The notes under the pieces were generated by a model. It saw only the letters and a list, made by a program, of their open reading frames with translations. It was not told where the DNA came from and did no database searches. DNA of 29,035 nt, taken from IMG/VR virus record IMGVR_UViG_2850778813_000007. One strand, given 5' to 3'. Each line of letters opens with the position of its first letter. The stretch's first letter is position 1. Shown here piece after piece: positions 3,674 to 27,801 of the stretch. Source of the stretch: a virus (Duplodnaviria; Heunggongvirae; Uroviricota; Caudoviricetes). A program made the position numbers and the translations under genes.

Positions 3674-5554
3674 TTATGCGGCTGCTCCAGCTTTGTTTGC
3701 TTTAACTTCCACCGTATCAATAAGTACAGGGTAGGTTTCTGCACTACCTGTAATATCCGTAATGACAAACCTGTTGAGTCCATTAGCAGTATTGGCCCAT
3801 TTCACCAGGTCAAACGCCTGTCCATCCACACCATCAAGCACCGGAGTAACATTAATGCTGTTACTGCCCTTAAATTTAAATGCAAGCGTATGCCAGTCAT
3901 GGTCGAATGCGCCAAACGTGCCAAGTTCTTTTTGTTGATTAACTGTATGATGGTATGCAATATTAATACTGGCTTTATCTGTCTGGACAAAGAAAGAACT
4001 CAGATGGCCTTCACCACCCTCACCCGGCCATTCCGCTATTCGCCAGTACAAACCAAAGGCATACTTGTTTCTGGTTGTCTCAAGATTGACGTTTTCGGGG
4101 ATTTTAAACCGGACAGCAATTTCCCCGCCTTTTTCCAGTAAAAGTTTTGCCTTGTCTGCAGCAATATCACAGTACATTGACCAGGATTTCGCGCTGTTAT
4201 TTTTCTCAATTCGCAGAGCTTTATTGCCGCTGTCATCAACCAGTGTGCGTCTGCCATACATACCGTCCCAGCCATAAGGTTTCAGCTGATTGTCTGTAGC
4301 TTTTTTGGCATCGTAAAAAATTACAGACTCTGAGGTGGTAACCGGCCTGTCTGGAACAACCACCCCGGCAGTACCATTAACAAACGCAGAAGACTTACCC
4401 GCGCAGCTCAGAATCGCCGTTGCCAGACGGTCGGAAATAATCCCACGGCGAGCCCATGAACTGAAATGGCTCGCCCTGTCCTGTGACGTCCAGGTGGCTG
4501 AGCTGTCACGCCATTTCGAACCGTAATAACCGATACCCGGAATGTCCGGGTCTTCTTCCGGTTTGTTCGTCGGCACATTCACCCCGTTCTCATCGGTCAT
4601 GAACGGTACGAAATGGATATTCTTTTCCGTTTTATTTTTATAGCTGCCGTACACCGTCTGGTACGTGGATTCGTTCTTCTGCTTCCAGAAATACGTCGTG
4701 TCCCCGCATATCCAGGGAACACCGCCAGCAGAGCCACCGACGCACTGGCCTGCCATATCCGCCAGGTCTGCACGGAATTTATCAACCAGCGCACCAAACT
4801 GTGCGGCATGATTTGCCGGCGTACCGCCAAAATCAAATTCCCCCTGCATCCACACCACGGCAAACAGCACATTTTTCGGGTTCTTCTCCAGTGCCGCTTT
4901 TGTTCGACCGATAAGGTCCTTATACAGCGGCTTGTCCACACCCCAGCGGGTTGAATTCTCCGAGGCACCACTCGCGTCACTGTATGTGCCATCAGCTCCG
5001 GTGGTGAACGCTGAACCACCACGACAGCACGGAACCAGCAGAATGCCCGCATTCGCCGGTATAAACGGCAGCAGTTTTTTGGCGATATGCAGCCCCTGCC
5101 CCACGGTTCCGTACTGCCCCTTTGACAGGTCCGCTTTCGGATGGTTAAGACGGCTCATGTCCTGCACATCATGCAGACAATGGTCCGCCGGAATGATGTC
5201 GTTATATTTGCATGCTGCACCGCCCGGTGTCACCGTACTGCGACGCGCCAGTTGCTTAATACGCGGGTCCGGACGGTCATATGTCCCCGGCAGCGGAAGG
5301 CCTTCACCATACGACATGCCGTTTGACTGCCCTGCCAGAACCACAACAAAGTAATACTCCGGGTTGCTGGTGGCGCTGATTACTGCACCTTCTGCTGCAA
5401 TCGCCTGCATCAGAGTATAAGGGGTTATGGCCACCGGACTACCAAACGGCTGCCAGCCCTCTTTCAGTTTATGTGTCAGCTTTTCCGCAAGATCTGACGG
5501 CGACGCCGCCCTGACAACATCATAGTGTTTAAATGCCATGGTTCTTTCCACCAT
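3674..5554 (-). CDS. nanS-p: NanS-p-type prophage 9-O-acetyl-sialate esterase (DUF1737 N-terminus plus SASA/SGNH esterase domain)
   Basis: 626-aa ORF; VVVLAGQSNGMSYG motif typical of sialate O-acetylesterases; this family sits immediately downstream of stxAB in Stx phages. Start is ATG 5554 or ATG 5539. Confidence 0.8.
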   Translation of the reverse strand: MVERTMAFKHYDVVRAASPSDLAEKLTHKLKEGWQPFGSPVAITPYTLMQAIAAEGAVISATSNPEYYFVVVLAGQSNGMSYGEGLPLPGTYDRPDPRIKQLARRSTVTPGGAACKYNDIIPADHCLHDVQDMSRLNHPKADLSKGQYGTVGQGLHIAKKLLPFIPANAGILLVPCCRGGSAFTTGADGTYSDASGASENSTRWGVDKPLYKDLIGRTKAALEKNPKNVLFAVVWMQGEFDFGGTPANHAAQFGALVDKFRADLADMAGQCVGGSAGGVPWICGDTTYFWKQKNESTYQTVYGSYKNKTEKNIHFVPFMTDENGVNVPTNKPEEDPDIPGIGYYGSKWRDSSATWTSQDRASHFSSWARRGIISDRLATAILSCAGKSSAFVNGTAGVVVPDRPVTTSESVIFYDAKKATDNQLKPYGWDGMYGRRTLVDDSGNKALRIEKNNSAKSWSMYCDIAADKAKLLLEKGGEIAVRFKIPENVNLETTRNKYAFGLYWRIAEWPGEGGEGHLSSFFVQTDKASINIAYHHTVNQQKELGTFGAFDHDWHTLAFKFKGSNSINVTPVLDGVDGQAFDLVKWANTANGLNRFVITDITGSAETYPVLIDTVEVKANKAGAAA

Positions 5555-6724: not shown

Positions 6725-7774
6725 TCAAACGATTAAATCCTGAACTTCCCTGACTGTCTGCTCAAAACGTCCTGTCTCCAGTTCAACGCCAATCGCACGA
6801 CGCCCGAGCGCCAGTGCCGCTTTTACCGTTGAACCCGACCCCATGAAAAAATCCGCAACCAGATCACCAGGACGACTACTTGCGCTGATTATCTGCTGCA
6901 GCATTTCTGCCGGTTTTTCGCACGGATGTTTCCCGGGATAGAACTGCACCGGTTTATGTGTCCACACATCCGTGTACGGCACCTGCGCCGTCACACCAAA
7001 ATACCGCCGCAGATGTTTATATTCACTCTGCAGCTCCGCATACTGTCGGTTCAGTGAAGTATACGTATCCACCAGCTGGTGGTGGGGCTTTTCCAGTTCC
7101 CCCCGCTGATGCTTCTCTTCTGCCACCCTGGCAAACAGTGCCTGTAATTTCAGATAATCGCTTTCGTTCGGCAACTGCCACTGACTGGCACTGAACCAGT
7201 GCGACACCATGTTTTTCTTTCCTGTGGCATCTGCAATCTGTTTTGCCGTTATCCCCAGGGCCGCGCATGCATCACGAAAGTAAGAAATCAGCGGGGCCAT
7301 CACATGCTGTTTCAGTGCCCTGCCCTTCGCCTCATACCCGGCATCTTTCGGACGATACGGCCCCTGATAATGTTCCGCGAACAGAATGCGCTCTGTGGCG
7401 GGGAAATACGCCCGCAGGCTTTCCTTGTTGCACCCGTTCCAGCGTCCGGAAGGCTTCGCCCAGATAATATGGTTCAGCACACTGAAGCGTTCACGCATCA
7501 TGATTTCGATATCAGATGCCAGGCGATGACCACAGAACAGGTAAAGACTTCCGGCAGGTTTCAGCACCCGCCAGAACTGCGCCAGACACTGGTCCAGCCA
7601 CTTCAGGTAATCATCGTCGCCCTTCCACTGGTTATCCCAGCCCTCAGGCTTCACTTTAAAGTACGGCGGGTCCGTGACTATCAGGTCAACAGAATTTTCG
7701 GGTAACGACCGGATAAATTCCAGGCAGTCGGCGTTGATTAACTCACAACTGGATATTTTTACAGTATTAAGCAT
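6725..7774 (-). CDS. DNA methyltransferase, N6-adenine/N4-cytosine family (beta class: DPPY motif IV before FxGSGS motif I)
   Basis: 349-aa ORF; LIVTDPPY near the N-terminus and DFFMGSGST near the C-terminus; no adjacent restriction endonuclease candidate. Confidence 0.8.
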   Translation of the reverse strand: MLNTVKISSCELINADCLEFIRSLPENSVDLIVTDPPYFKVKPEGWDNQWKGDDDYLKWLDQCLAQFWRVLKPAGSLYLFCGHRLASDIEIMMRERFSVLNHIIWAKPSGRWNGCNKESLRAYFPATERILFAEHYQGPYRPKDAGYEAKGRALKQHVMAPLISYFRDACAALGITAKQIADATGKKNMVSHWFSASQWQLPNESDYLKLQALFARVAEEKHQRGELEKPHHQLVDTYTSLNRQYAELQSEYKHLRRYFGVTAQVPYTDVWTHKPVQFYPGKHPCEKPAEMLQQIISASSRPGDLVADFFMGSGSTVKAALALGRRAIGVELETGRFEQTVREVQDLIV

Positions 7775-8348: not shown

Positions 8349-9170
8349 CTATCGCGTTACCCTCTTTAACTGCCGCTCCGCCCATGCCTCTTCAATGTCA
8401 AACCGAACCACCAACGTATCGTAAAAGCGTTTCACTGATTTTTTCCACGTATCAAGCGTGATAGCACTCGTCACTTTGCATATGGCATTAAATGCCTCCG
8501 TTGATGGTAGTCTTTCACAGCCACGACCACCACAACGCTGGCAGTCTCTGATAACAGGCATACCACGTTTTACCGACTCTTCACGATGAATGGCGACACC
8601 ACGCCCACGGCAATCCTTACAGGCGGTGGAAACCTCACCCTTTCCGCCACACTCCGGACAGGCAACTTTTACCACCTCCCTGACTTTTTTCCATTCTTCC
8701 CAGTAAGACGGATACACGCCTTTTGTGCACTTTGCCCACACTGGTGGCTTACCATCCGGATACTGGATCTTGTTTGTAAAAACCTCGCTTTCAATAAATT
8801 TTTTTCCGTGACAGCAGGGGCACTGTTTTTTGCTCGCCGCGCTACGGGCATAATCTTCAAACGCATACGAAGCCATAATGCGCATCACTACCGGTTTTAT
8901 TTCTGCCGGAAGTTTTCTCAACGCCGCTACACGATCGCACCGACTGAGTGCATAATCTGCCAGTAATTCTGTTGCCCGCGCCCTGTCATTCATACTGATG
9001 CCCATTTTCCCCAGGAACGCAGAAAACCCCATCTCAGCCCGATTCTGTGTCATGCCCTGCGCGGCCATCACATCAGTGATACTCAGCGCATCTTTTGACG
9101 TTGAGGCCGATGCATCGGTCAGGCTAGGGGATTTTGGGGAGTAGTATTTCGGTAAATCTTCCAGTTTCAT
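8349..9170 (-). CDS. Putative late-gene antiterminator Q-like protein with four CxxCxGxG zinc-ribbon repeats
   Basis: 273-aa ORF directly downstream of rusA and upstream of terminators and late genes (the Q position); CPCCHGKK, CPECGGKG, CKDCRGRG, CQRCGGRG repeats. Family assignment is by position and length, not confirmed. Confidence 0.5.
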   Translation of the reverse strand: MKLEDLPKYYSPKSPSLTDASASTSKDALSITDVMAAQGMTQNRAEMGFSAFLGKMGISMNDRARATELLADYALSRCDRVAALRKLPAEIKPVVMRIMASYAFEDYARSAASKKQCPCCHGKKFIESEVFTNKIQYPDGKPPVWAKCTKGVYPSYWEEWKKVREVVKVACPECGGKGEVSTACKDCRGRGVAIHREESVKRGMPVIRDCQRCGGRGCERLPSTEAFNAICKVTSAITLDTWKKSVKRFYDTLVVRFDIEEAWAERQLKRVTR

Positions 9171-16485: not shown

Positions 16486-16709
16486 TGTTGGTCTCCTGTG
16501 GGCTTGTCATCTTCTGTATTCGCTAGCCTTGGGTGTGTATATGGAATGCTCGGATCCAGATGACAAAGAATGGCAACATCCTCCGGAACACCTCGCGTTT
16601 TCCACTTTCCAACACCTTGACTGCCACGAGGCCTTCCTTTCTTTGGGAACCTGCGACCAATAGCGGCATTGGTTTTAAATTGAATTTTTAATATTTCATA
16701 AAGGGTCAT
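16482..16709 (-). CDS. Cro-like small protein (diverged YdaS/Cro-type), first gene of the rightward early operon
   Basis: 75-aa ORF divergent from cI; C-terminal WKTRGVPEDVAILCHLDPSIPYTHP resembles the YdaS/Cro-type ..GRVP....IE..T.G.V.R.DLRPDIYP pattern, but the expected HTH segment is not evident. Confidence 0.4.
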   Translation of the reverse strand: MTLYEILKIQFKTNAAIGRRFPKKGRPRGSQGVGKWKTRGVPEDVAILCHLDPSIPYTHPRLANTEDDKPTGDQQ

Positions 16710-16820
16710 TCTTTAGTCTCACACCAGATACTTTGTTATTCAACGATGTTAACCGCGAGATTCCAAAGTATCAAGAAATTCTGTTACTTTCGTATCAACA
16801 GCCATGAGAGGAGAAGAAAA
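16710..16820. promoter_or_regulatory. Divergent promoter/operator region between the Cro-like gene and cI
   Basis: 111-bp AT-rich intergenic region between divergent starts; repeated TATCAA and GTTA motifs; operators not resolved by eye. Confidence 0.4.
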
Positions 16821-17477
16821 ATGAAGTCTTTAGGTGAACGTCTCATCAACGCACGGCAAAAAGCTGGGTTAACACAAGATGCGTTGGCTAAAAAAGCTGG
16901 GATCACCAGAGTTGCAATCAGTAAAGCCGAGCAAGGCCTTACAAAAAGTTTCAACGGTGACACCCTTTTTAAAGTTGCAGCTGCACTGCGGTGTTCACCG
17001 CAGTGGCTTCAGAACGGAGATGAAAAAGATAAGCATTGGGAAAATAATGTTAAGAGCTGCCCACAGAGAGACACAGCACACTCTTACCCTGTAATTAACT
17101 GGGTTCAGGCAGGATTATTCGCAACTTCTGGTGATGACTACAACATGTATGATCAGGATAATTGGAGGCATTCTGTAAAATACGCTGGTGAGAGGGGGTT
17201 CTGGCTGGAAGTGCACGGAGACTCAATGACTTCGCCCGTAGGAATAACATTTCCTGAAGGAATGTCGATCCTTGTCAACCCAGATAAAGAAGTTTTTTCA
17301 GGGTGTTACGTCATCGCCAGAAAAAAATCCACCAATGAAGCAACATTCAAAAAATATATTTCTGACATGGGAAAGGCGTTTCTAAAGCCCCTTAATCCAC
17401 AATATCCAATCATAGAAATGGACAATGATTGCGAAATAGTAGGTGTTGTGGTTGATGCCAGGTGGGATATTTTCTGA
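16821..17477 (+). CDS. cI: CI-type prophage repressor (HTH_XRE N-terminal domain plus S24/LexA-like autopeptidase domain)
   Basis: ORF track 16746..17477; ATG at 16821 preceded by GAGAGGAG; QKAGLTQDALAKKAGITRVAIS HTH; LEVHGDSM serine motif and a downstream Lys. Confidence 0.8.
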   Translation: MKSLGERLINARQKAGLTQDALAKKAGITRVAISKAEQGLTKSFNGDTLFKVAAALRCSPQWLQNGDEKDKHWENNVKSCPQRDTAHSYPVINWVQAGLFATSGDDYNMYDQDNWRHSVKYAGERGFWLEVHGDSMTSPVGITFPEGMSILVNPDKEVFSGCYVIARKKSTNEATFKKYISDMGKAFLKPLNPQYPIIEMDNDCEIVGVVVDARWDIF

Positions 17478-17579
17478 CCAGACACAAAACACAAAAAGAA
17501 ACCAAAGTATCAAAATCACTTGCCACACCTTGACACCTTAGTTACCATAAAACAAAGTTCGTAACTGAGGTATCATCTC

Positions 17580-18083
17580 ATGATCAATAAAGCTACAACT
17601 CTTGACTGTCTCGAAGAACTGAAAAACCTCGGCAGCCTCATTACACTAATAGCAAAAGCAACACCTGATGCTACACTCTCTAGCGATATAGAGTCATGCG
17701 CAGGACTGGCATGGGATATGACAAATAGCATATCCAGAAAGCTATCGTCAGCAATGCTTTTACAGAACAAAAATTCTGCAATCAACAACCGTCTTCGCAC
17801 CCAACGCGAAGCCTGCGGCTTAACAACCGCCGAACTCGCCAGGCTGCTCGATCTCGATGAAGAAATTATCATCCAGTGGGAGAGCGGAGAGTATGAACCA
17901 ACTATCAGTATGCTTATCCCACTGGCAAATATTCTTGGCTGCGATCCGATGTGGCTGTTAACTGGTGAGGTTACTCCTCCGGAGCAACCAAAAAGTGAGG
18001 AGCAGCAACACCATGACGCATCTCAACAAGTTTGCCCCTTATCTCGCGAAGCTCTTCTGCGGAAGAACCAATACCAATGGTGA
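17580..18083 (+). CDS. XRE-family HTH protein with an unknown 60-aa N-terminal domain
   Basis: 167-aa ORF; central HTH_XRE segment (RLRTQREACGLTTAELARLLDLDEEIIIQWESGEYEPTISMLIPLANILGCDPMWLLTG); the C-terminal 40 aa are low complexity and overlap a convergent ORF. Confidence 0.5.
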   Translation: MINKATTLDCLEELKNLGSLITLIAKATPDATLSSDIESCAGLAWDMTNSISRKLSSAMLLQNKNSAINNRLRTQREACGLTTAELARLLDLDEEIIIQWESGEYEPTISMLIPLANILGCDPMWLLTGEVTPPEQPKSEEQQHHDASQQVCPLSREALLRKNQYQW

Positions 18084-18231
18084 CATAATCGCCGCTTCGC
18101 CCTTCAAGGTACATGCGAACATTTTTATCAATCATTGCGGAAACAGTCTCAATATGAAAACACTTCTGAGACTCGCTATATAGCAGAACATATAAGTCAG
18201 CTGAGGAAGCCATGAAAAAGTTCGAAAACAT
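17971..18231 (-). CDS. Hypothetical 86-aa protein (overlaps neighbours on both sides; uncertain)
   Basis: ATG at 18231 preceded by GGAGAA with 5-nt spacer; overlaps the 3' end of the XRE ORF by 113 nt and the start of the 121-aa ORF by 20 nt. Confidence 0.3.
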   Translation of the reverse strand: MFSNFFMASSADLYVLLYSESQKCFHIETVSAMIDKNVRMYLEGRSGDYVTIGIGSSAEELREIRGKLVEMRHGVAAPHFLVAPEE

Positions 18232-18577
18232 AACTGTTCTCCATGTTGATGACTTTGATTATACAAACCCGGAACTTCTCCCGGAGGTTGTAAAGGCAAT
18301 AGATGTTGCCGATATAGTGATTAGAGAAAAGAGAATTGTCAAAAACAGGCTCGCATGCACTTCAGGAGCAATGACAGAAACAACCTCACAGCAAGATAAT
18401 TACGAAGGCATTTGTCTGGAGCCTGATTCATTTGCGGTAAATGTTTATCATTTATTGCATGCAACACAGGTATTACATATGTCCAGTAATCACGAAACGA
18501 AAACACTCGGCAGCGAAATTCTGAGTTTTGCATGTGAGTATACAAAAGCTGCTGCCGAAAAAGAATTAGCGCAATAA
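18212..18577 (+). CDS. Hypothetical 121-aa protein in the cI-proximal accessory region
   Basis: ORF track; ATG preceded by GAGGAAG with 5-nt spacer; no recognisable family. Confidence 0.4.
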   Translation: MKKFENITVLHVDDFDYTNPELLPEVVKAIDVADIVIREKRIVKNRLACTSGAMTETTSQQDNYEGICLEPDSFAVNVYHLLHATQVLHMSSNHETKTLGSEILSFACEYTKAAAEKELAQ

Positions 18578-18704
18578 CAACAAATATGCCCTGAACGTTT
18601 ATTGCGGTTTTATCGCCGGGGATTGTTACAACCTTAATCCGCAGGAGGCTTTATTGTGACTTTTATAAAGAATATGGCATCACACAAGACCGCTGGATTT
18701 GCCC

Positions 18705-19610
18705 CTATATTTCCAGACATCTGTTATCACTTAACCCATTACAAGCCCGCTGCCGCAGATATTCCCGTGGCGAGCGATAACCCAGCGCACTATGCGGATG
18801 CCATTCGTTATAATGCTCGAACGCCTCTGCAAGGTTCTTTGCTGCCGTTAACCCGTCTGGTTTGGGCATGATACTGATGTAGTCACGCTTTATCGTTTTC
18901 ACGAAGCTCTCTGCTATTCCGTTACTCTCCGGACTCCGCACCGCCGTGTTCTTCGGTTCAAGTCCCAACATCCGGGCGAACTGGCGTGTTTCATTAGCCC
19001 GGTAGCATGAACCATTATCCGTCAGCCACTCCACTGGAGACGACGGAAGATCGTTGCCGAAGCGGCGTTCCACCGCTCCCAGCATGACGTCCTGTACTGT
19101 TTCACTGTTGAAGCCGCCGGTAGTCACCGCCCAGTGCAGTGCCTCACGATCACAGCAGTCCAGCGCGAACGTGACACGCAGTCTCTCTCCGTTATCACAG
19201 CAGAACTCGAACCCGTCAGAGCACCATCGCTGATTGCTTTCTTTCACGGCCACTCTGCCTGTATGTGCCCGTTTCGATGGTGGTACAGCAGGTTTTCGCT
19301 CAAGCAACAGGGCATTCTGGCGCATGATCCGGTAAACACGTTTGGCATTGATCGCAGGCATACCATCAAGTTCTGCCTGTCTGCGAAGCAGCGCCCATAC
19401 CCGACGATAACCATACGTGGGCAGCTCTCCGATAACATGGTGTATACGGAGAAGCACATCCGTATCATCAGTGTGACGACTGCGGCGGCCATCCATCCAG
19501 TCATCGGTTCGTCTGAGAATGACGTGCAACTGCGCACGCGACACCCGGAGACAACGGCTGACTAAGCTTACTCCCCATCCCCGGGTAATAAGGGCGCGTG
19601 CGCTATCCAC
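18705..19610 (-). CDS. insD: IS2 transposase OrfB (InsD)
   Basis: 301-aa ORF matching IS2 InsD (DDE integrase-type domain). Confidence 0.9.
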
Positions 19611-19933
19611 TTTTTTGCCCGTCCATATTCAACGGCTTCTTTGAGGAGTTCATTTTCCATCGTTTTCTTGCCGAGCAGGCGCTGGAGTTCTTTAATCTGC
19701 TTCATGGCGGCAGCAAGTTCAGAGGCAGGAACAACCTGTTCTCCGGCGGCCACAGCAGTAAGACTTCCTTCCTGGTATTGCTTACGCCAGAGAAATAACT
19801 GGCTGGCTGCTACACCATGTTGCCGGGCAACGAGGGAGACCGTCATCCCCGGTTCAAAGCTCTGCTGAACAATTGCGATCTTTTCCTGTGTGGTACGCCG
19901 TCTGCGTTTCTCCGGCCCTAAGACATCAATCAT
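19568..19933 (-). CDS. insC: IS2 OrfA (InsC)
   Basis: ORF track 19568..19978; internal Met gives the 121-aa InsC ([26 protein letters not shown]...). Confidence 0.85.
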
Positions 19934-20107
19934 CTGTACTCCAATGACTAGTCTAAAAACTAGTATTAAGACTATCACTTATTTAAGTGATACTGGTTGT
20001 CTGGAGATTCAGGGGGCCAGTCTAACCGCCTGCCTTATTGCACAATACGGTGAAAATTACATGCATATTGCCTGCTTATTTCTGCGTAAAGCATACGGGA
20101 GATAATA

Positions 20108-20308
20108 ATGCATCAGAAAACAGCAGAACACGAACAAACCAGAATATTGCTGACCATCAAAAACGGGAAAGTAATATTCATTCGCCATGTTCATGACGAT
20201 GAACTTGTAGGAACTCTTTCAACATTCCTGTTTATTGCAGAAAAGGCAGGATATGACGTTATTGCACCAGCAGATGAAGATGAAGATGAAGATGAAGATG
20301 AGGAATAA
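20108..20308 (+). CDS. Hypothetical 66-aa protein with poly-acidic C-terminal tail (DEDEDEDEDEE)
   Basis: ORF track; RBS GGGAG with 6-nt spacer; first intact gene after the IS2 insertion. Confidence 0.5.
   Translation: MHQKTAEHEQTRILLTIKNGKVIFIRHVHDDELVGTLSTFLFIAEKAGYDVIAPADEDEDEDEDEE
20273..20302 (+). repeat. Hexanucleotide microsatellite (GATGAA)x4 plus GATGAG encoding the acidic tail
   Basis: Direct tandem repeat read from the sequence, in frame within the 66-aa ORF. Confidence 0.7.
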
Positions 20309-20313
20309 ATATC

Positions 20314-20895
20314 ATGCAATACGATGAATTCCAGGCTGAAGCAACAGCCAATGGTATACGAACTGGCAGTATGACGATTGATTATCACGACGCCATACGT
20401 CGTCTGGATGCCGGAGAATTCGATACTCCTAATGTGCGAGGTTTACGTATCCTTCAGTGTCTGGCGCAAGCCGACGAAGCAGGATTACTGGGTAAACTTC
20501 CGGTTGAGATGAAGGTTGCTCAGTGGCGATGGTTGTATGTGACGACATTCATCAACGAAGAAGAAGACAAGAACGGCACAATTGATATCCTGAATGAACA
20601 CGGAACAACTGAACACGCCGTGGTATATAACGGGATGTATGGGTTTATGACGATATATCCCGGCCCCATTCGATTTGCCTTACAACAGTATATTGAATGG
20701 AATTTAATTCAAAAATACGGCGAAGCTGAAGGAATGGGAAGAGCGCTGTTTCTTTATCAGAAAATGCTCACTACTTCCCCTGATAAAGGTTTCATTCTTT
20801 CAGATATGGGTCGAGAAGGGCTTGAAATCCTTCTGGATGAAATTATTAACGAAATGAATACTCATGGCATGCAATCCGAAACAGATATTAAGTAA
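20314..20895 (+). CDS. Hypothetical 193-aa protein (early-left operon)
   Basis: ORF track; starts 5 nt after the acidic-tail gene; no recognisable family. Confidence 0.5.
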   Translation: MQYDEFQAEATANGIRTGSMTIDYHDAIRRLDAGEFDTPNVRGLRILQCLAQADEAGLLGKLPVEMKVAQWRWLYVTTFINEEEDKNGTIDILNEHGTTEHAVVYNGMYGFMTIYPGPIRFALQQYIEWNLIQKYGEAEGMGRALFLYQKMLTTSPDKGFILSDMGREGLEILLDEIINEMNTHGMQSETDIK

Positions 20896-20905
20896 AAGGG
20901 ACCAC

Positions 20906-21154
20906 ATGACCGTTATCGAGTATATCCAGGAAAATCCAGATTGCAGTAGAGAAGATATATCCCTCGCACTTGGAAGAAGCGCAACTTCTATCAGTAATAA
21001 ATTATCACGGTTATTGTGGAATGGGTTAATAGTACGAACTGGAGAAAAAAACAAAATGATTCTGTACTGCGTAAACAATCTGCCGTTTGGATACAGCAAT
21101 CCCCTAAGTGTTATGTTCAACCAGTTACTTAAACAGGTAAGAAATGGCAACTGA
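20906..21154 (+). CDS. Hypothetical 82-aa protein (possible winged-helix DNA-binding)
   Basis: ORF track 20864..21154; internal ATG at 20906 preceded by AAGGGA; segment DISLALGRSATSISNKLSRLLWNGLIVR looks HTH-like. Confidence 0.4.
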   Translation: MTVIEYIQENPDCSREDISLALGRSATSISNKLSRLLWNGLIVRTGEKNKMILYCVNNLPFGYSNPLSVMFNQLLKQVRNGN

Positions 21155-21461
21155 CTCACAACTAACCATAGAAACGGCCCTGAATGTCGGCCTGGCGCTC
21201 CTTGGTTATTTTTACATCGTGTTCTGCAGCGGACGGTGGCTGTCGCTGTTGTTCCTGAAAAAATGGAATAAACGCCGTAAGCAGGATGAACGCCAGAAGG
21301 CAATGAATGCGTTTTCCGAAGCCTTCGGAATTGACGGCATGGAACCAGGGGATCCAGCTCGCGCAATCAGCAGAGGGGGTGTAGTAATCCTTGTATATCG
21401 GAGTGAAGAGAAAAATGACGATCACAAAACAACGAGTAGAAAAAATCATATATCGCCATGA
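21144..21461 (+). CDS. Hypothetical 105-aa protein with one predicted TM helix
   Basis: ORF track; hydrophobic LNVGLALLGYFYIVFCSGRWLSLLFL followed by a basic region. Confidence 0.35.
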   Translation: MATDSQLTIETALNVGLALLGYFYIVFCSGRWLSLLFLKKWNKRRKQDERQKAMNAFSEAFGIDGMEPGDPARAISRGGVVILVYRSEEKNDDHKTTSRKNHISP

Positions 21462-21729
21462 AATGGGACTGAACAGCGATGTCACTGCCGAAGAGGTTTA
21501 TGACCTGGCTGTACTGGCGCTGAATTTATCAAATATCGCAAACCTGAAGCGATACGAGCTTGATATGGATGGTTGCGACTCGTGCGGTCAGGATTGTGGC
21601 GCAGATATGACTGAAGATCCTGATGGTGATTATGTCCTGTTTGATGACGTGGTTAAGTTGTTTGAATTTGATACAACCACTCAAAAGTTAGAAATCCCGG
21701 CAAAGGAGGCTGCCAGTGAGCAAGATTGA
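21415..21729 (+). CDS. Hypothetical 104-aa acidic protein with CxxC..C cluster
   Basis: ORF track 21391..21729; internal ATG at 21415; DMDGCDSCGQDCGADMTEDPDGDY motif. Confidence 0.35.
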   Translation: MTITKQRVEKIIYRHEMGLNSDVTAEEVYDLAVLALNLSNIANLKRYELDMDGCDSCGQDCGADMTEDPDGDYVLFDDVVKLFEFDTTTQKLEIPAKEAASEQD

Positions 21730-23230: not shown

Positions 23231-23302
23231 TGAAGTGGCACACTGAATTTGGCCACCTGAACAGAGGTGATATGCTCACCTCAGAACAACACAGGTGCTC
23301 CA

Positions 23303-24384
<1,082 letters not shown>

Positions 24385-26268: not shown

Positions 26269-26646
26269 ATGGACGAACAGTGGGGATACGTCGGGGCTAA
26301 ATCGCGCCAGCGCTGGCTGTTTTACGCGTATGACAGGCTCCGGAAGACGGTTGTTGCGCACGTATTCGGTGAACGCACTATGGCGACGCTGGGGCGTCTT
26401 ATGAGCTTGCTGTCACCCTTTGACGTGGTGATATGGATGACGGATGGCTGGCCACTGTATGAATCCCGCCTGAAGGGAAAGCTGCACGTAATCAGCAAGC
26501 GATATACGCAGCGAATTGAGCGGCATAACCTGAATCTGAGGCAGCACCTGGCACGGCTGGGACGGAAGTCTCTGTCGTTCTCAAAATCGGTGGAGCTGCA
26601 TGACAAAGTCATCGGGCATTATCTGAACATAAAACACTATCAATAA
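26269..26646 (+). CDS. insB: IS1 InsB' (ATG-initiated part of the insB frame; expressed as InsAB' by -1 frameshift)
   Basis: ORF track; product matches the IS1 InsB C-terminal region; A6C slippery motif near 26200. Confidence 0.85.
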
Positions 26647-26661
26647 GTTGGAGTCATTACC

Positions 26662-27187
26662 CCGTAGGAATTATACAAAACTTGGCGAATTCACTCCACC
26701 AAAAACCGATGCTGGCACCGGAAGGACAATTCATCTGGTTCAACCAGCTATTGATGCTCTTAAAAGTCAGGCGGAAATGACCATGCTTGGAAAGCAACAT
26801 TCTGTAGAGGTAAAGCAGAGGGAATATGGGAGAAGTACTGTGCATAAATGCACTTTTGTTTTTAGTCCTCAGGTAATAAAACAGCGGCAGTTTTCCGGAC
26901 CGCACTATAAGGTTGACTCCATCAGGGAGTCATGGACAAGTATCTTAAAACGCGCAGGTCTGAGACACAGAAAATCGTACCAATCCAGGCATACTTATGC
27001 ATGCTGGTCACTTGCCGCTGGAGCTAATCCTAGTTTTATCGCAAGCCAGATGGGCCACACAAACGCACAAATGGTATTCAATGTTTACGGAGCATGGATG
27101 AAAGACAACAATCACGAACAGATAGAACTCCTTAACAAAAGACTATCTGAAAGTGTCCCATGTATGCCCCATAAGAAAGTGGGGTAA
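26662..27187 (+). pseudogene. Tyrosine integrase, C-terminal catalytic fragment truncated by IS1
   Basis: ORF 26648..27187 begins inside the IS1 terminus; remaining sequence carries catalytic-domain motifs (..RHTYACWSLAAGANPSFIASQMGHTNAQMVFNVYGAWM); only about 170 aa remain. Confidence 0.7.
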
Positions 27188-27225: not shown

Positions 27226-27801
27226 CCTGTCACGTTACGCGCGTGGCAGAGGCGTTACGGATTGCTGAAACCGCAACGGACAGACGGCGGTCATCGGCTG
27301 TTCAACGATGCCGATATTGACCGGATCCGCGAGATCAAACGCTGGATCGACAACGGCGTGCAGGTCAGCAAAGTTAAAATGCTGCTCAGTAATGAAAATG
27401 TTGATGTGCAGAACGGCTGGCGCGATCAGCAAGAAACATTACTGACTTACTTGCAAAGCGGCAATCTGCATAGCCTGCGAACGTGGATCAAAGAGCGCGG
27501 TCAGGATTACCCCGCCCAGACGCTCACCACGCATTTGTTTATTCCTCTGCGTCGACGGCTTCAGTGCCAACAACCGACTCTCCAGGCGCTGCTGGCGATC
27601 CTCGACGGCGTACTGATCAACTACATCGCCATCTGTCTGGCTTCGGCACGTAAAAAACAGGGTAAAGATGCGCTGGTGGTTGGCTGGAATATTCACGATA
27701 CCACCCGTCTGTGGCTGGAGGGCTGGATTGCCAGTCAACAAGGATGGCGCATTGATGTCCTCGCCCACTCGCTCAATGTAAGGCAGTATGACTTTCCGTG
27801 A
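27226..27801 (+). pseudogene. mlrA: mlrA (yehV) 3' portion, separated from its 5' end by the prophage
   Basis: In-frame translation from about 27226 reads ..PVTLRAWQRRYGLLKPQRTDGGHRLFNDADIDRIREIKRWIDNGVQVSKVKMLLSNENV..., matching MlrA from about residue 17; upstream sequence is phage (int). The last 7 residues differ from the MlrA C-terminus as I recall it. Confidence 0.65.

Follow-up and report, generated by a model that had tools for sequence, protein, structure and literature searches.

The closest described relatives of the two genes considered here, and direct members of the same families, are accessory genes of temperate enterobacterial phages. phiP27 L07, Fels-1 STM0898.2n and mEp237 gp49 belong to phrog_340, and phiP27 L06 belongs to phrog_1515, a family of ~195-amino-acid (aa) prophage proteins; both are PHROG families without an assigned function. 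Early-left regions of lambdoid phages house lambda Ral, Gam and other anti-defence genes, and DNA mimics such as T7 Ocr, ArdA, T4 Arn and lambda Gam imitate B-DNA with acidic residues displayed across the surface of their fold. The present analysis concerns a 29,035-nucleotide (nt) stretch of viral DNA (IMG/VR record IMGVR_UViG_2850778813_000007, referred to below as the window), a phiP27-like lambdoid prophage of Escherichia coli, in which an open reading frame (ORF) of 66 codons with an acidic C-terminal tail, ORF66, is followed directly by ORF193. An earlier note had read such a tail at such a position as a possible mark of a DNA mimic or an anti-restriction factor. The tail is, however, a recent and polymorphic product of slippage and not a conserved functional motif. 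The best explanation of the locus, held with middling confidence, is that of two stacked accessory genes of an early operon, in which the core of ORF66 is the functional part, the tail is a slippage appendage and ORF193 acts independently. The features on which this rests are:

20108-20308, plus strand: ORF66, phrog_340 member, 66 aa, with an ATG start and a GGGAGA Shine-Dalgarno sequence 5 nt upstream
20273-20302, plus strand: hexanucleotide microsatellite encoding (DE)5, made of GATGAA x4 (20273-20296) and GATGAG (20297-20302)
20314-20895, plus strand: ORF193, phrog_1515 member, an alpha/beta protein of 193 aa, starting 5 nt past the ORF66 stop

The translation of ORF66 is MHQKTAEHEQTRILLTIKNGKVIFIRHVHDDELVGTLSTFLFIAEKAGYDVIAPADEDEDEDEDEE, and its C-terminal end reads APADEDEDEDEDEE. 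The description in the earlier note, of a 66-aa product ending in DEDEDEDEDEE and encoded by four GATGAA units plus GATGAG, is thus borne out by the sequence; the GATGAG unit is followed by GAA and the TAA stop. Tandem Repeats Finder placed the repeat at 20272-20301 (period 6, 5.0 copies, 100% match, score 60), which made it the top-scoring tandem repeat in the window. It is not a chance feature, because the 24 further matching bases would be expected at about 4^-24 per site by the authors' own arithmetic. On direct reading of the sequence the last repeat unit, GATGAGGAA, provides the GAGG Shine-Dalgarno sequence of ORF193, and expansion upstream of it therefore leaves the spacing to the ORF193 start unchanged. 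Both ORFs are real genes under purifying selection, since comparison with diverged alleles gave ratios of non-synonymous to synonymous substitution rates (dN/dS) of 0.23-0.40 (ORF66) and 0.16-0.23 (ORF193).

Comparison across strains, which the earlier note had suggested, revealed variation in repeat copy number. Four complete E. coli genomes carry 2, 3, 5 or 6 units at the DNA level; over 880 nt they show 1-2 substitutions relative to the window, and they share an identical ORF193 protein (WP_001199104.1). The 4-unit state is known from protein alleles, so that the natural range overall is 2-6 hexamer units. The protein alleles counted within the 90%-identity cluster of ORF66 span 60-68 aa:

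60 aa: at least 1000 contigs
62 aa: at least 1000 contigs
64 aa: 265 contigs
66 aa: about 170 contigs
68 aa: a cluster of 3 sequences

Every length difference is a multiple of 6 nt and in frame, and the locus has both the perfect units and the differing copy number among near-identical alleles that characterise a slippage-prone, in-frame variable-number tandem repeat (VNTR). The proposal that the repeat could change length in frame by slippage is therefore upheld by natural alleles. The commonest form of the poly-D/E tail is just DEDEE. Moreover, in diverged E. coli lineages, whose proteins are 78-89% identical to the window ORF66, the tail always has two units and ends in ADEDEE, which indicates that the expansion took place recently and is limited to a single E. 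coli sublineage.

Beyond this sublineage the core of ORF66 is conserved while the tails vary by lineage. ORF66 matches the phrog_340 hidden Markov model (HMM) with E=3.6e-23 (residues 2-65 on profile positions 17-80 of 85), and the same family is also matched by diverged members from Klebsiella, EKP1, mEp237 and phiP27. A profile search recovered 493 relatives from Enterobacteriaceae (Escherichia, Klebsiella, Salmonella, Citrobacter and Enterobacter), nearly all of them standalone proteins of 60-85 aa, with a conserved part of about 45 residues that reads RV(L/V)LxIENGxV...DxE...TF(L/I)xxAxxAG(Y). The tails end in PPAKEQTL (phiP27 L07), EEISNVG (Fels-1), TPSSGN (EKP1), EEEAGGTDSDTNS (Klebsiella phages) or PPSDNMKSTV (mEp237), and PADEDEE is also found. 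In the AlphaFold2 model, strands 12-18 and 21-28 form a beta-hairpin and a helix spans 37-46, with a predicted local distance difference test (pLDDT) of about 54 in the tail, a value of low confidence; the D/E tail is accordingly modelled as a disordered appendage outside the folded core. The core (residues 1-55) has a net charge of -1.1 and an isoelectric point (pI) of 6.4, compared with -12 and 4.4 for the whole protein. phiP27 L07, likewise stacked with an ORF193 homolog, lacks an acidic tail and has a pI of 6.7. The neutral core, the differing tails and the pI of phiP27 L07 together argue against DNA mimicry as the function of phrog_340.

Outside the PHROG collection ORF66 had no match in Pfam (E<=1), NCBIfam, PADLOC (E<=1) or a PDB sequence search. 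A HicB-N-like fold had been considered from the beta-beta-alpha-(beta) pattern and the 'G-x-x-I/V-x-P' ending, and is at most a speculative lead, the Pfam and PDB profile searches having been negative. The only homology-based hint at function, and a weak one, is that the core resembles the C-terminal part of phrog_4792 (positions 199-240 of 268, E=5.6e-6) and of phrog_2379 (127-175 of 187, E=6e-4), both labelled anti-repressor; phiP27 L07 likewise matches phrog_4792. The core was also sought as a domain of larger proteins, including the Rha-type proteins of the window, and was found in none of the six-frame ORFs of any locus; nor was a fused protein recovered in the fetched loci or in phage tblastn searches. 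The core is suggested to be a small hydrophobic module whose role is oligomerisation or the binding of a protein.

ORF193 was described in the earlier note as a protein of no recognised family. No named family was found for it in Pfam (E<=1), NCBIfam or PADLOC (E<=1), nor a sequence match in PDB, but it does belong to the function-less phrog_1515 (E=3e-90, residues 1-192 on profile positions 12-202 of 203). An exhaustive profile search over 1.84 billion representatives returned 101 clusters at E<=1e-3, mostly of proteins of ~200 aa. Conserved positions are D37, which is invariant, and G34, R72, W73, F79, Y105, R120, E128, Y148 and G166; a C-terminal His is nearly invariant in the family and has been lost from the window allele. 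The protein is acidic (pI 4.6), and the phage record of PhiR49_2 encodes it with 100% identity. Its AlphaFold2 model is confident (pLDDT 86.5; predicted template-modelling score 0.83) and mixes helices with strands, and no structural relative was found in the fold libraries searched (PDB and BFVD). Thus, the structure and profile checks that the earlier note had proposed for both proteins yielded models of each, and PHROG families as the only kin, with none in Pfam, NCBIfam or PDB sequences. ORF193-family genes are labelled '2-polyprenylphenol hydrolase / flavodoxin oxidoreductase' in ST11-VIM1phi8.3 (fetched locus L005, 6286-6912) and in several Klebsiella phage records; the family shows no detectable domain of this kind, and the label is a misannotation.

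The two genes had been presented as a pair, which holds for their stacking in the window and not as a general rule. They are stacked in the window type (5-nt gap) and in phiP27-type E. coli prophages (4-nt overlap, six loci). The early-left operon of Klebsiella-type phages, CharmingMan, EKP1 and phi467 contains members of both families at a distance of 0.2-1.6 kb, with other genes between them. Fels-1 and the Salmonella and Citrobacter prophages that carry an ORF66-family gene have no ORF193 homolog between repressor and integrase, Aeromonas phage AsXd-1 has ORF193 and lacks an ORF66-family gene, and in mEp237 the ORF66-family gene is in the nin-region instead of the early-left region. The juxtaposition is therefore lineage-specific and not obligate, because each family occurs without the other.

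Upstream of the small gene, Klebsiella phages and Fels-1 encode a ~120-aa protein that resembled the C-terminal half of ORF193 by eye; this identity was rejected (hhalign probability 8.5%), and the protein is a family of its own, phrog_1737. In mEp237 and PHB10 a ~200-aa protein is encoded downstream of the small-family gene, and it was likewise rejected as ORF193 kin, the score being 8.5 bits against a 7-sequence database. In Klebsiella-type phages (ST11-VIM1phi8.3, L005 4408-4852) the phrog_340 gene is followed by a tiny ParE_like gene (PF24732, E about 1e-19), and in AsXd-1 (L008 3346-3567) a ParE_like gene fills the slot expected for the small phrog_340 gene; among relatives with the small gene, this neighbour is restricted to the Klebsiella type.

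The genes around ORF66 and ORF193 place them in the early-left operon. The features concerned are:

16746-17477, plus strand: cI-type repressor (Pfam Peptidase_S24 E=4e-22, HTH_3 E=2e-14), labelled LexA family or cI in relatives
17497-17548, plus strand: candidate control region of OL/pL type immediately past cI, predicted from shared elements and a sigma-70-like site
17580-18083, plus strand: 167-aa helix-turn-helix (HTH) regulator, DicA/CII-like (Pfam HTH_3 E=4e-11; phrog_4739 and phrog_4836, 'CII-like regulator')
18212-18577, plus strand: 121-aa homolog of phiP27 L08, phrog_5451 (phrog_5451 E=2e-83; L08 match E=4e-77)
18656-18693, plus strand: 5' portion of a leader ORF of 37 codons that IS2 splits
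18694-20024, minus strand: IS2, 1331 bp, inside the leader ORF, with a 5-bp target duplication (ACCGC)
20025-20105, plus strand: remaining 3' portion of the leader ORF, with 2 nt between its stop and the ORF66 ATG
20906-21154, plus strand: 82-aa winged-helix (wHTH), MarR-like protein, 10 nt past ORF193 (phrog_1687, E=1e-23)
21144-21461, plus strand: DUF4752 protein, the next gene of the operon (Pfam DUF4752 E=7e-37)

The element at 18694-20024 is presumed to be the insertion sequence (IS) IS2 from its length and ends, as the earlier note also named it. Its junctions were set by 25-mer matching against the uninterrupted PhiR49_2; inverted repeats at its termini and minus-strand ORFs of transposase type are further evidence for the insertion. 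The statement that ORF66 and ORF193 are the first genes of the early-left operon after IS2 agrees with these data, as they lie downstream of the cI-type repressor and straight after the insertion. In PhiR49_2 (L002 5968-6081) the leader is an uninterrupted 37-aa ORF with a GTG start behind an AGGAGG Shine-Dalgarno sequence. The 3' ~84 nt of the leader are also found in further E. coli prophages, ones without ORF66, and for this reason the segment is suggested to be a mosaic joint that has been conserved, or an element for translational coupling.

An OL/pL-type control region just past cI is plausible. Elements at 16758-16774 and 16607-16621, in the cI-cro intergenic region, recur after cI at 17497-17513 and 17520-17534, and a sigma-70-like site (TTGCCA-17-TACCAT, 17520-17548) overlaps them, in a region where the promoter count is not above shuffle expectation. 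If this assignment is correct, the 167-aa HTH gene and the L08 homolog would join the same early-left operon. No promoter-like site was found on the plus strand of 18401-21600, and ORF66 and ORF193 would therefore depend on an upstream promoter.

Downstream, the 82-aa wHTH protein matches Pfam HTH_24 (E=6e-5, passing the curated cutoff) and MarR_2 (E=2e-4, failing its cutoff); it carries a MarR label in Stx1 phage records and is left uncalled by PGAP in the RefSeq relatives inspected. The DUF4752 gene is followed on the plus strand by two Ea22-like proteins. Close relatives (E. coli prophages at yecE, PhiR49_2 from ECOR13, and Stx1a- and Stx2a-converting phages) keep the same order, ending in xis and int, and the position between cI and xis/int is seen in all relatives.

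The prophage itself bears other marks. An IS3-family element is found at about 23267-24357, IS1 (26269-26646) abuts a truncated integrase (26648-27187), and a truncated mlrA (yehV) at 27262-27801 is the right junction. From the extra ISs, the truncated integrase and the truncated mlrA, the window copy is a decaying, defective prophage at mlrA, compared with the yecE site of its closest relatives. Late-region genes typical of Stx-type lambdoid prophages (3674-5554, 6725-7774 and 8349-9170, all on the minus strand) encode a NanS-p-like sialate O-acetylesterase, an N6/N4 DNA methylase and a Q antiterminator with a zinc-finger-like insert.

The preferred explanation draws on the tight spacing of the leader, ORF66, ORF193 and the wHTH gene (2, 5 and 10 nt), which supports stacked accessory genes lying in that order in the leftward early operon of a phiP27-like lambdoid prophage. 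They would be expressed early in the lytic phase from an upstream pL-type promoter, and in the window copy IS2 would sever ORF66 and ORF193 from it. ORF66 is proposed to work through its beta-hairpin and helix, most likely by binding another protein or itself, and not as a DNA mimic. Replication slippage of (GATGAA)n creates the D/E tail and goes on resizing it between 2 and 6 units; tail length is presumably near-neutral, the effect of the tail being most likely little or merely modulatory. ORF193 is probably an independent early accessory factor rather than an obligate partner of ORF66.

A counter-defence role would give the tail a different meaning: alone or with the acidic ORF193 it would mimic nucleic acid or otherwise inhibit a host restriction or defence system soon after infection or induction, and slippage would tune its potency. 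Consistent with this are the early-left position, the acidity of both proteins, the small wHTH gene immediately downstream (as in acr-aca operons), the strain-to-strain differences in tail length, and an ORF193 fold without known relatives, which is thus assigned to no other function. However, most of phrog_340, including the phiP27 protein stacked on an ORF193 homolog, has no such tail or an unrelated one, the core is neutral and all the extra charge lies in the tail instead of being spread over the fold. Neither protein has a match in Pfam, NCBIfam or solved structures, and no sequence or structural homology to Ocr, ArdA and similar mimic families was found for either. Lar_restr_allev (PF14354) was not matched by either protein in a Pfam scan at E<=1, nor were the PADLOC defence-protein models at the same threshold. 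Anti-restriction genes cluster in plasmid leading regions, and neither family was found there, plasmid matches being phage-like circles or prophages integrated in plasmids. In addition, related phiP27-type E. coli prophages already hold a separate Lar/Ral-type gene (PF14354) on the opposite arm (L027/L028 2021-2239). The argument for a DNA mimic fails because the charge lies outside the conserved fold and is missing from close functional equivalents, and mimicry by ORF66 is unlikely; the anti-restriction reading of the earlier note is left unsupported, with the tail restricted to one sublineage. A counter-defence role in general is a possibility guessed from position only, and the specific version set out above is judged distinctly unlikely. 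A bolder form, in which ORF193 founds a structurally new class of early effectors and, with ORF66 as a binding module, makes up a hitherto unrecognised host-takeover or counter-defence cassette tuned by tail slippage, is more doubtful still; if true, it would be common in prophages of Shiga toxin-producing and extraintestinal pathogenic E. coli and would represent a phage-borne contingency locus.

Regulation offers another account, in which ORF66 is a stand-alone anti-repressor C-terminal domain that modulates a repressor or regulator, with ORF193 and the wHTH protein in the same cassette. The matches of the core and of phiP27 L07 to anti-repressor-labelled PHROGs point in this direction, as do the ORF6N, Rha or anti-repressor-type DNA-binding genes that lie ~10 nt behind ORF193 homologs in four distant phages, a place taken by the wHTH gene here. 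Nevertheless, the PHROG label probably derives from the N-terminal domains of those proteins, fused members were not recovered in the loci and phage searches described above, and the downstream DNA-binding genes are not homologous across lineages, so that they may reflect shared gene order only. The 82-aa wHTH was also compared with the C-terminal domain of the ORF6N/Rha proteins behind ORF193 homologs and is not that domain. This account is considered unlikely, if somewhat less so than counter-defence. A pair active in the lysogen, of an exclusion, defence or toxin-antitoxin-like kind, that shields the host from other phages is very unlikely: the obligate co-occurrence expected of a type II toxin-antitoxin system fails, and neither protein has a toxin or antitoxin match in Pfam. 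The regulatory and lysogen accounts each draw weak support and each meet specific evidence against them, leaving the stacking of two independent accessory genes as the preferred reading.

The two genes are common: among 5,426 complete E. coli genomes, 249 contain the 1.2-kb segment, and Stx1- and Stx2-converting phages as well as ST131-type strains are represented. The literature searched yielded nothing on either family and no record of the ORF66 repeat locus as a typing marker. phrog_340 and phrog_1515 are already-known families without function, and the window holds a polymorphic member of ordinary phage hypothetical proteins; the modest value of the finding comes from the fold-orphan ORF193 and the in-frame VNTR. 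The acidic tail should not serve to infer DNA mimicry, whereas the clean in-frame VNTR could act as a strain marker. ORF193, being well predicted and without structural relatives in the libraries searched, is a reasonable target for mining host-interaction functions of early operons.

Compared with the other members of its two families, the window has an expanded D/E tail in ORF66 and an ORF193 without the C-terminal His. The locus is reminiscent of acr-aca operons in that small early proteins of no known function are followed directly by a small HTH gene, but neither protein has similarity to a solved structure by sequence or fold and the wHTH gene is missing downstream in many relatives: it lies 10 nt downstream in the window and Stx1-type relatives, and the homology of Stx2 phages stops at the end of ORF193. 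ORF66 is like Ocr, ArdA, Arn and Gam in being small, acidic and presumably early, at a plausible position; unlike them, its fold is neutral, its charge lies in a disordered, non-conserved tail of variable length, and no similarity to them was detected. lambda Ral and Rac Lar are also small (about 66 aa) and encoded in a lambdoid early operon, but ORF66 gave no match to PF14354, the Pfam model for them. The acidic C-terminal tails of single-stranded DNA-binding proteins (SSB) are similarly disordered and D/E-rich, and differ in belonging to proteins with an OB fold, which ORF66 lacks. Bacillus phage SP-10 (AB605730.1 / NC_019487.1) has (GATGAA)n at 121780-121810, in a gene labelled SSB in one record and hypothetical in the other. 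Three 'Bacillus phage' nucleotide matches were rejected as relatives of ORF66, since identity extended over the 31-nt microsatellite only; the identity of the SP-10 repeat is coincidental and looks like an independent acidic stretch made from the same repeat. True contingency loci work through frameshifts that turn genes on and off, whereas the ORF66 repeat alters tail length only. In this it resembles the VNTRs of E. coli prophages used in multiple-locus VNTR analysis (MLVA) typing, with which it shares a 6-bp unit, in-frame change of copy number and variation among near-identical strains.
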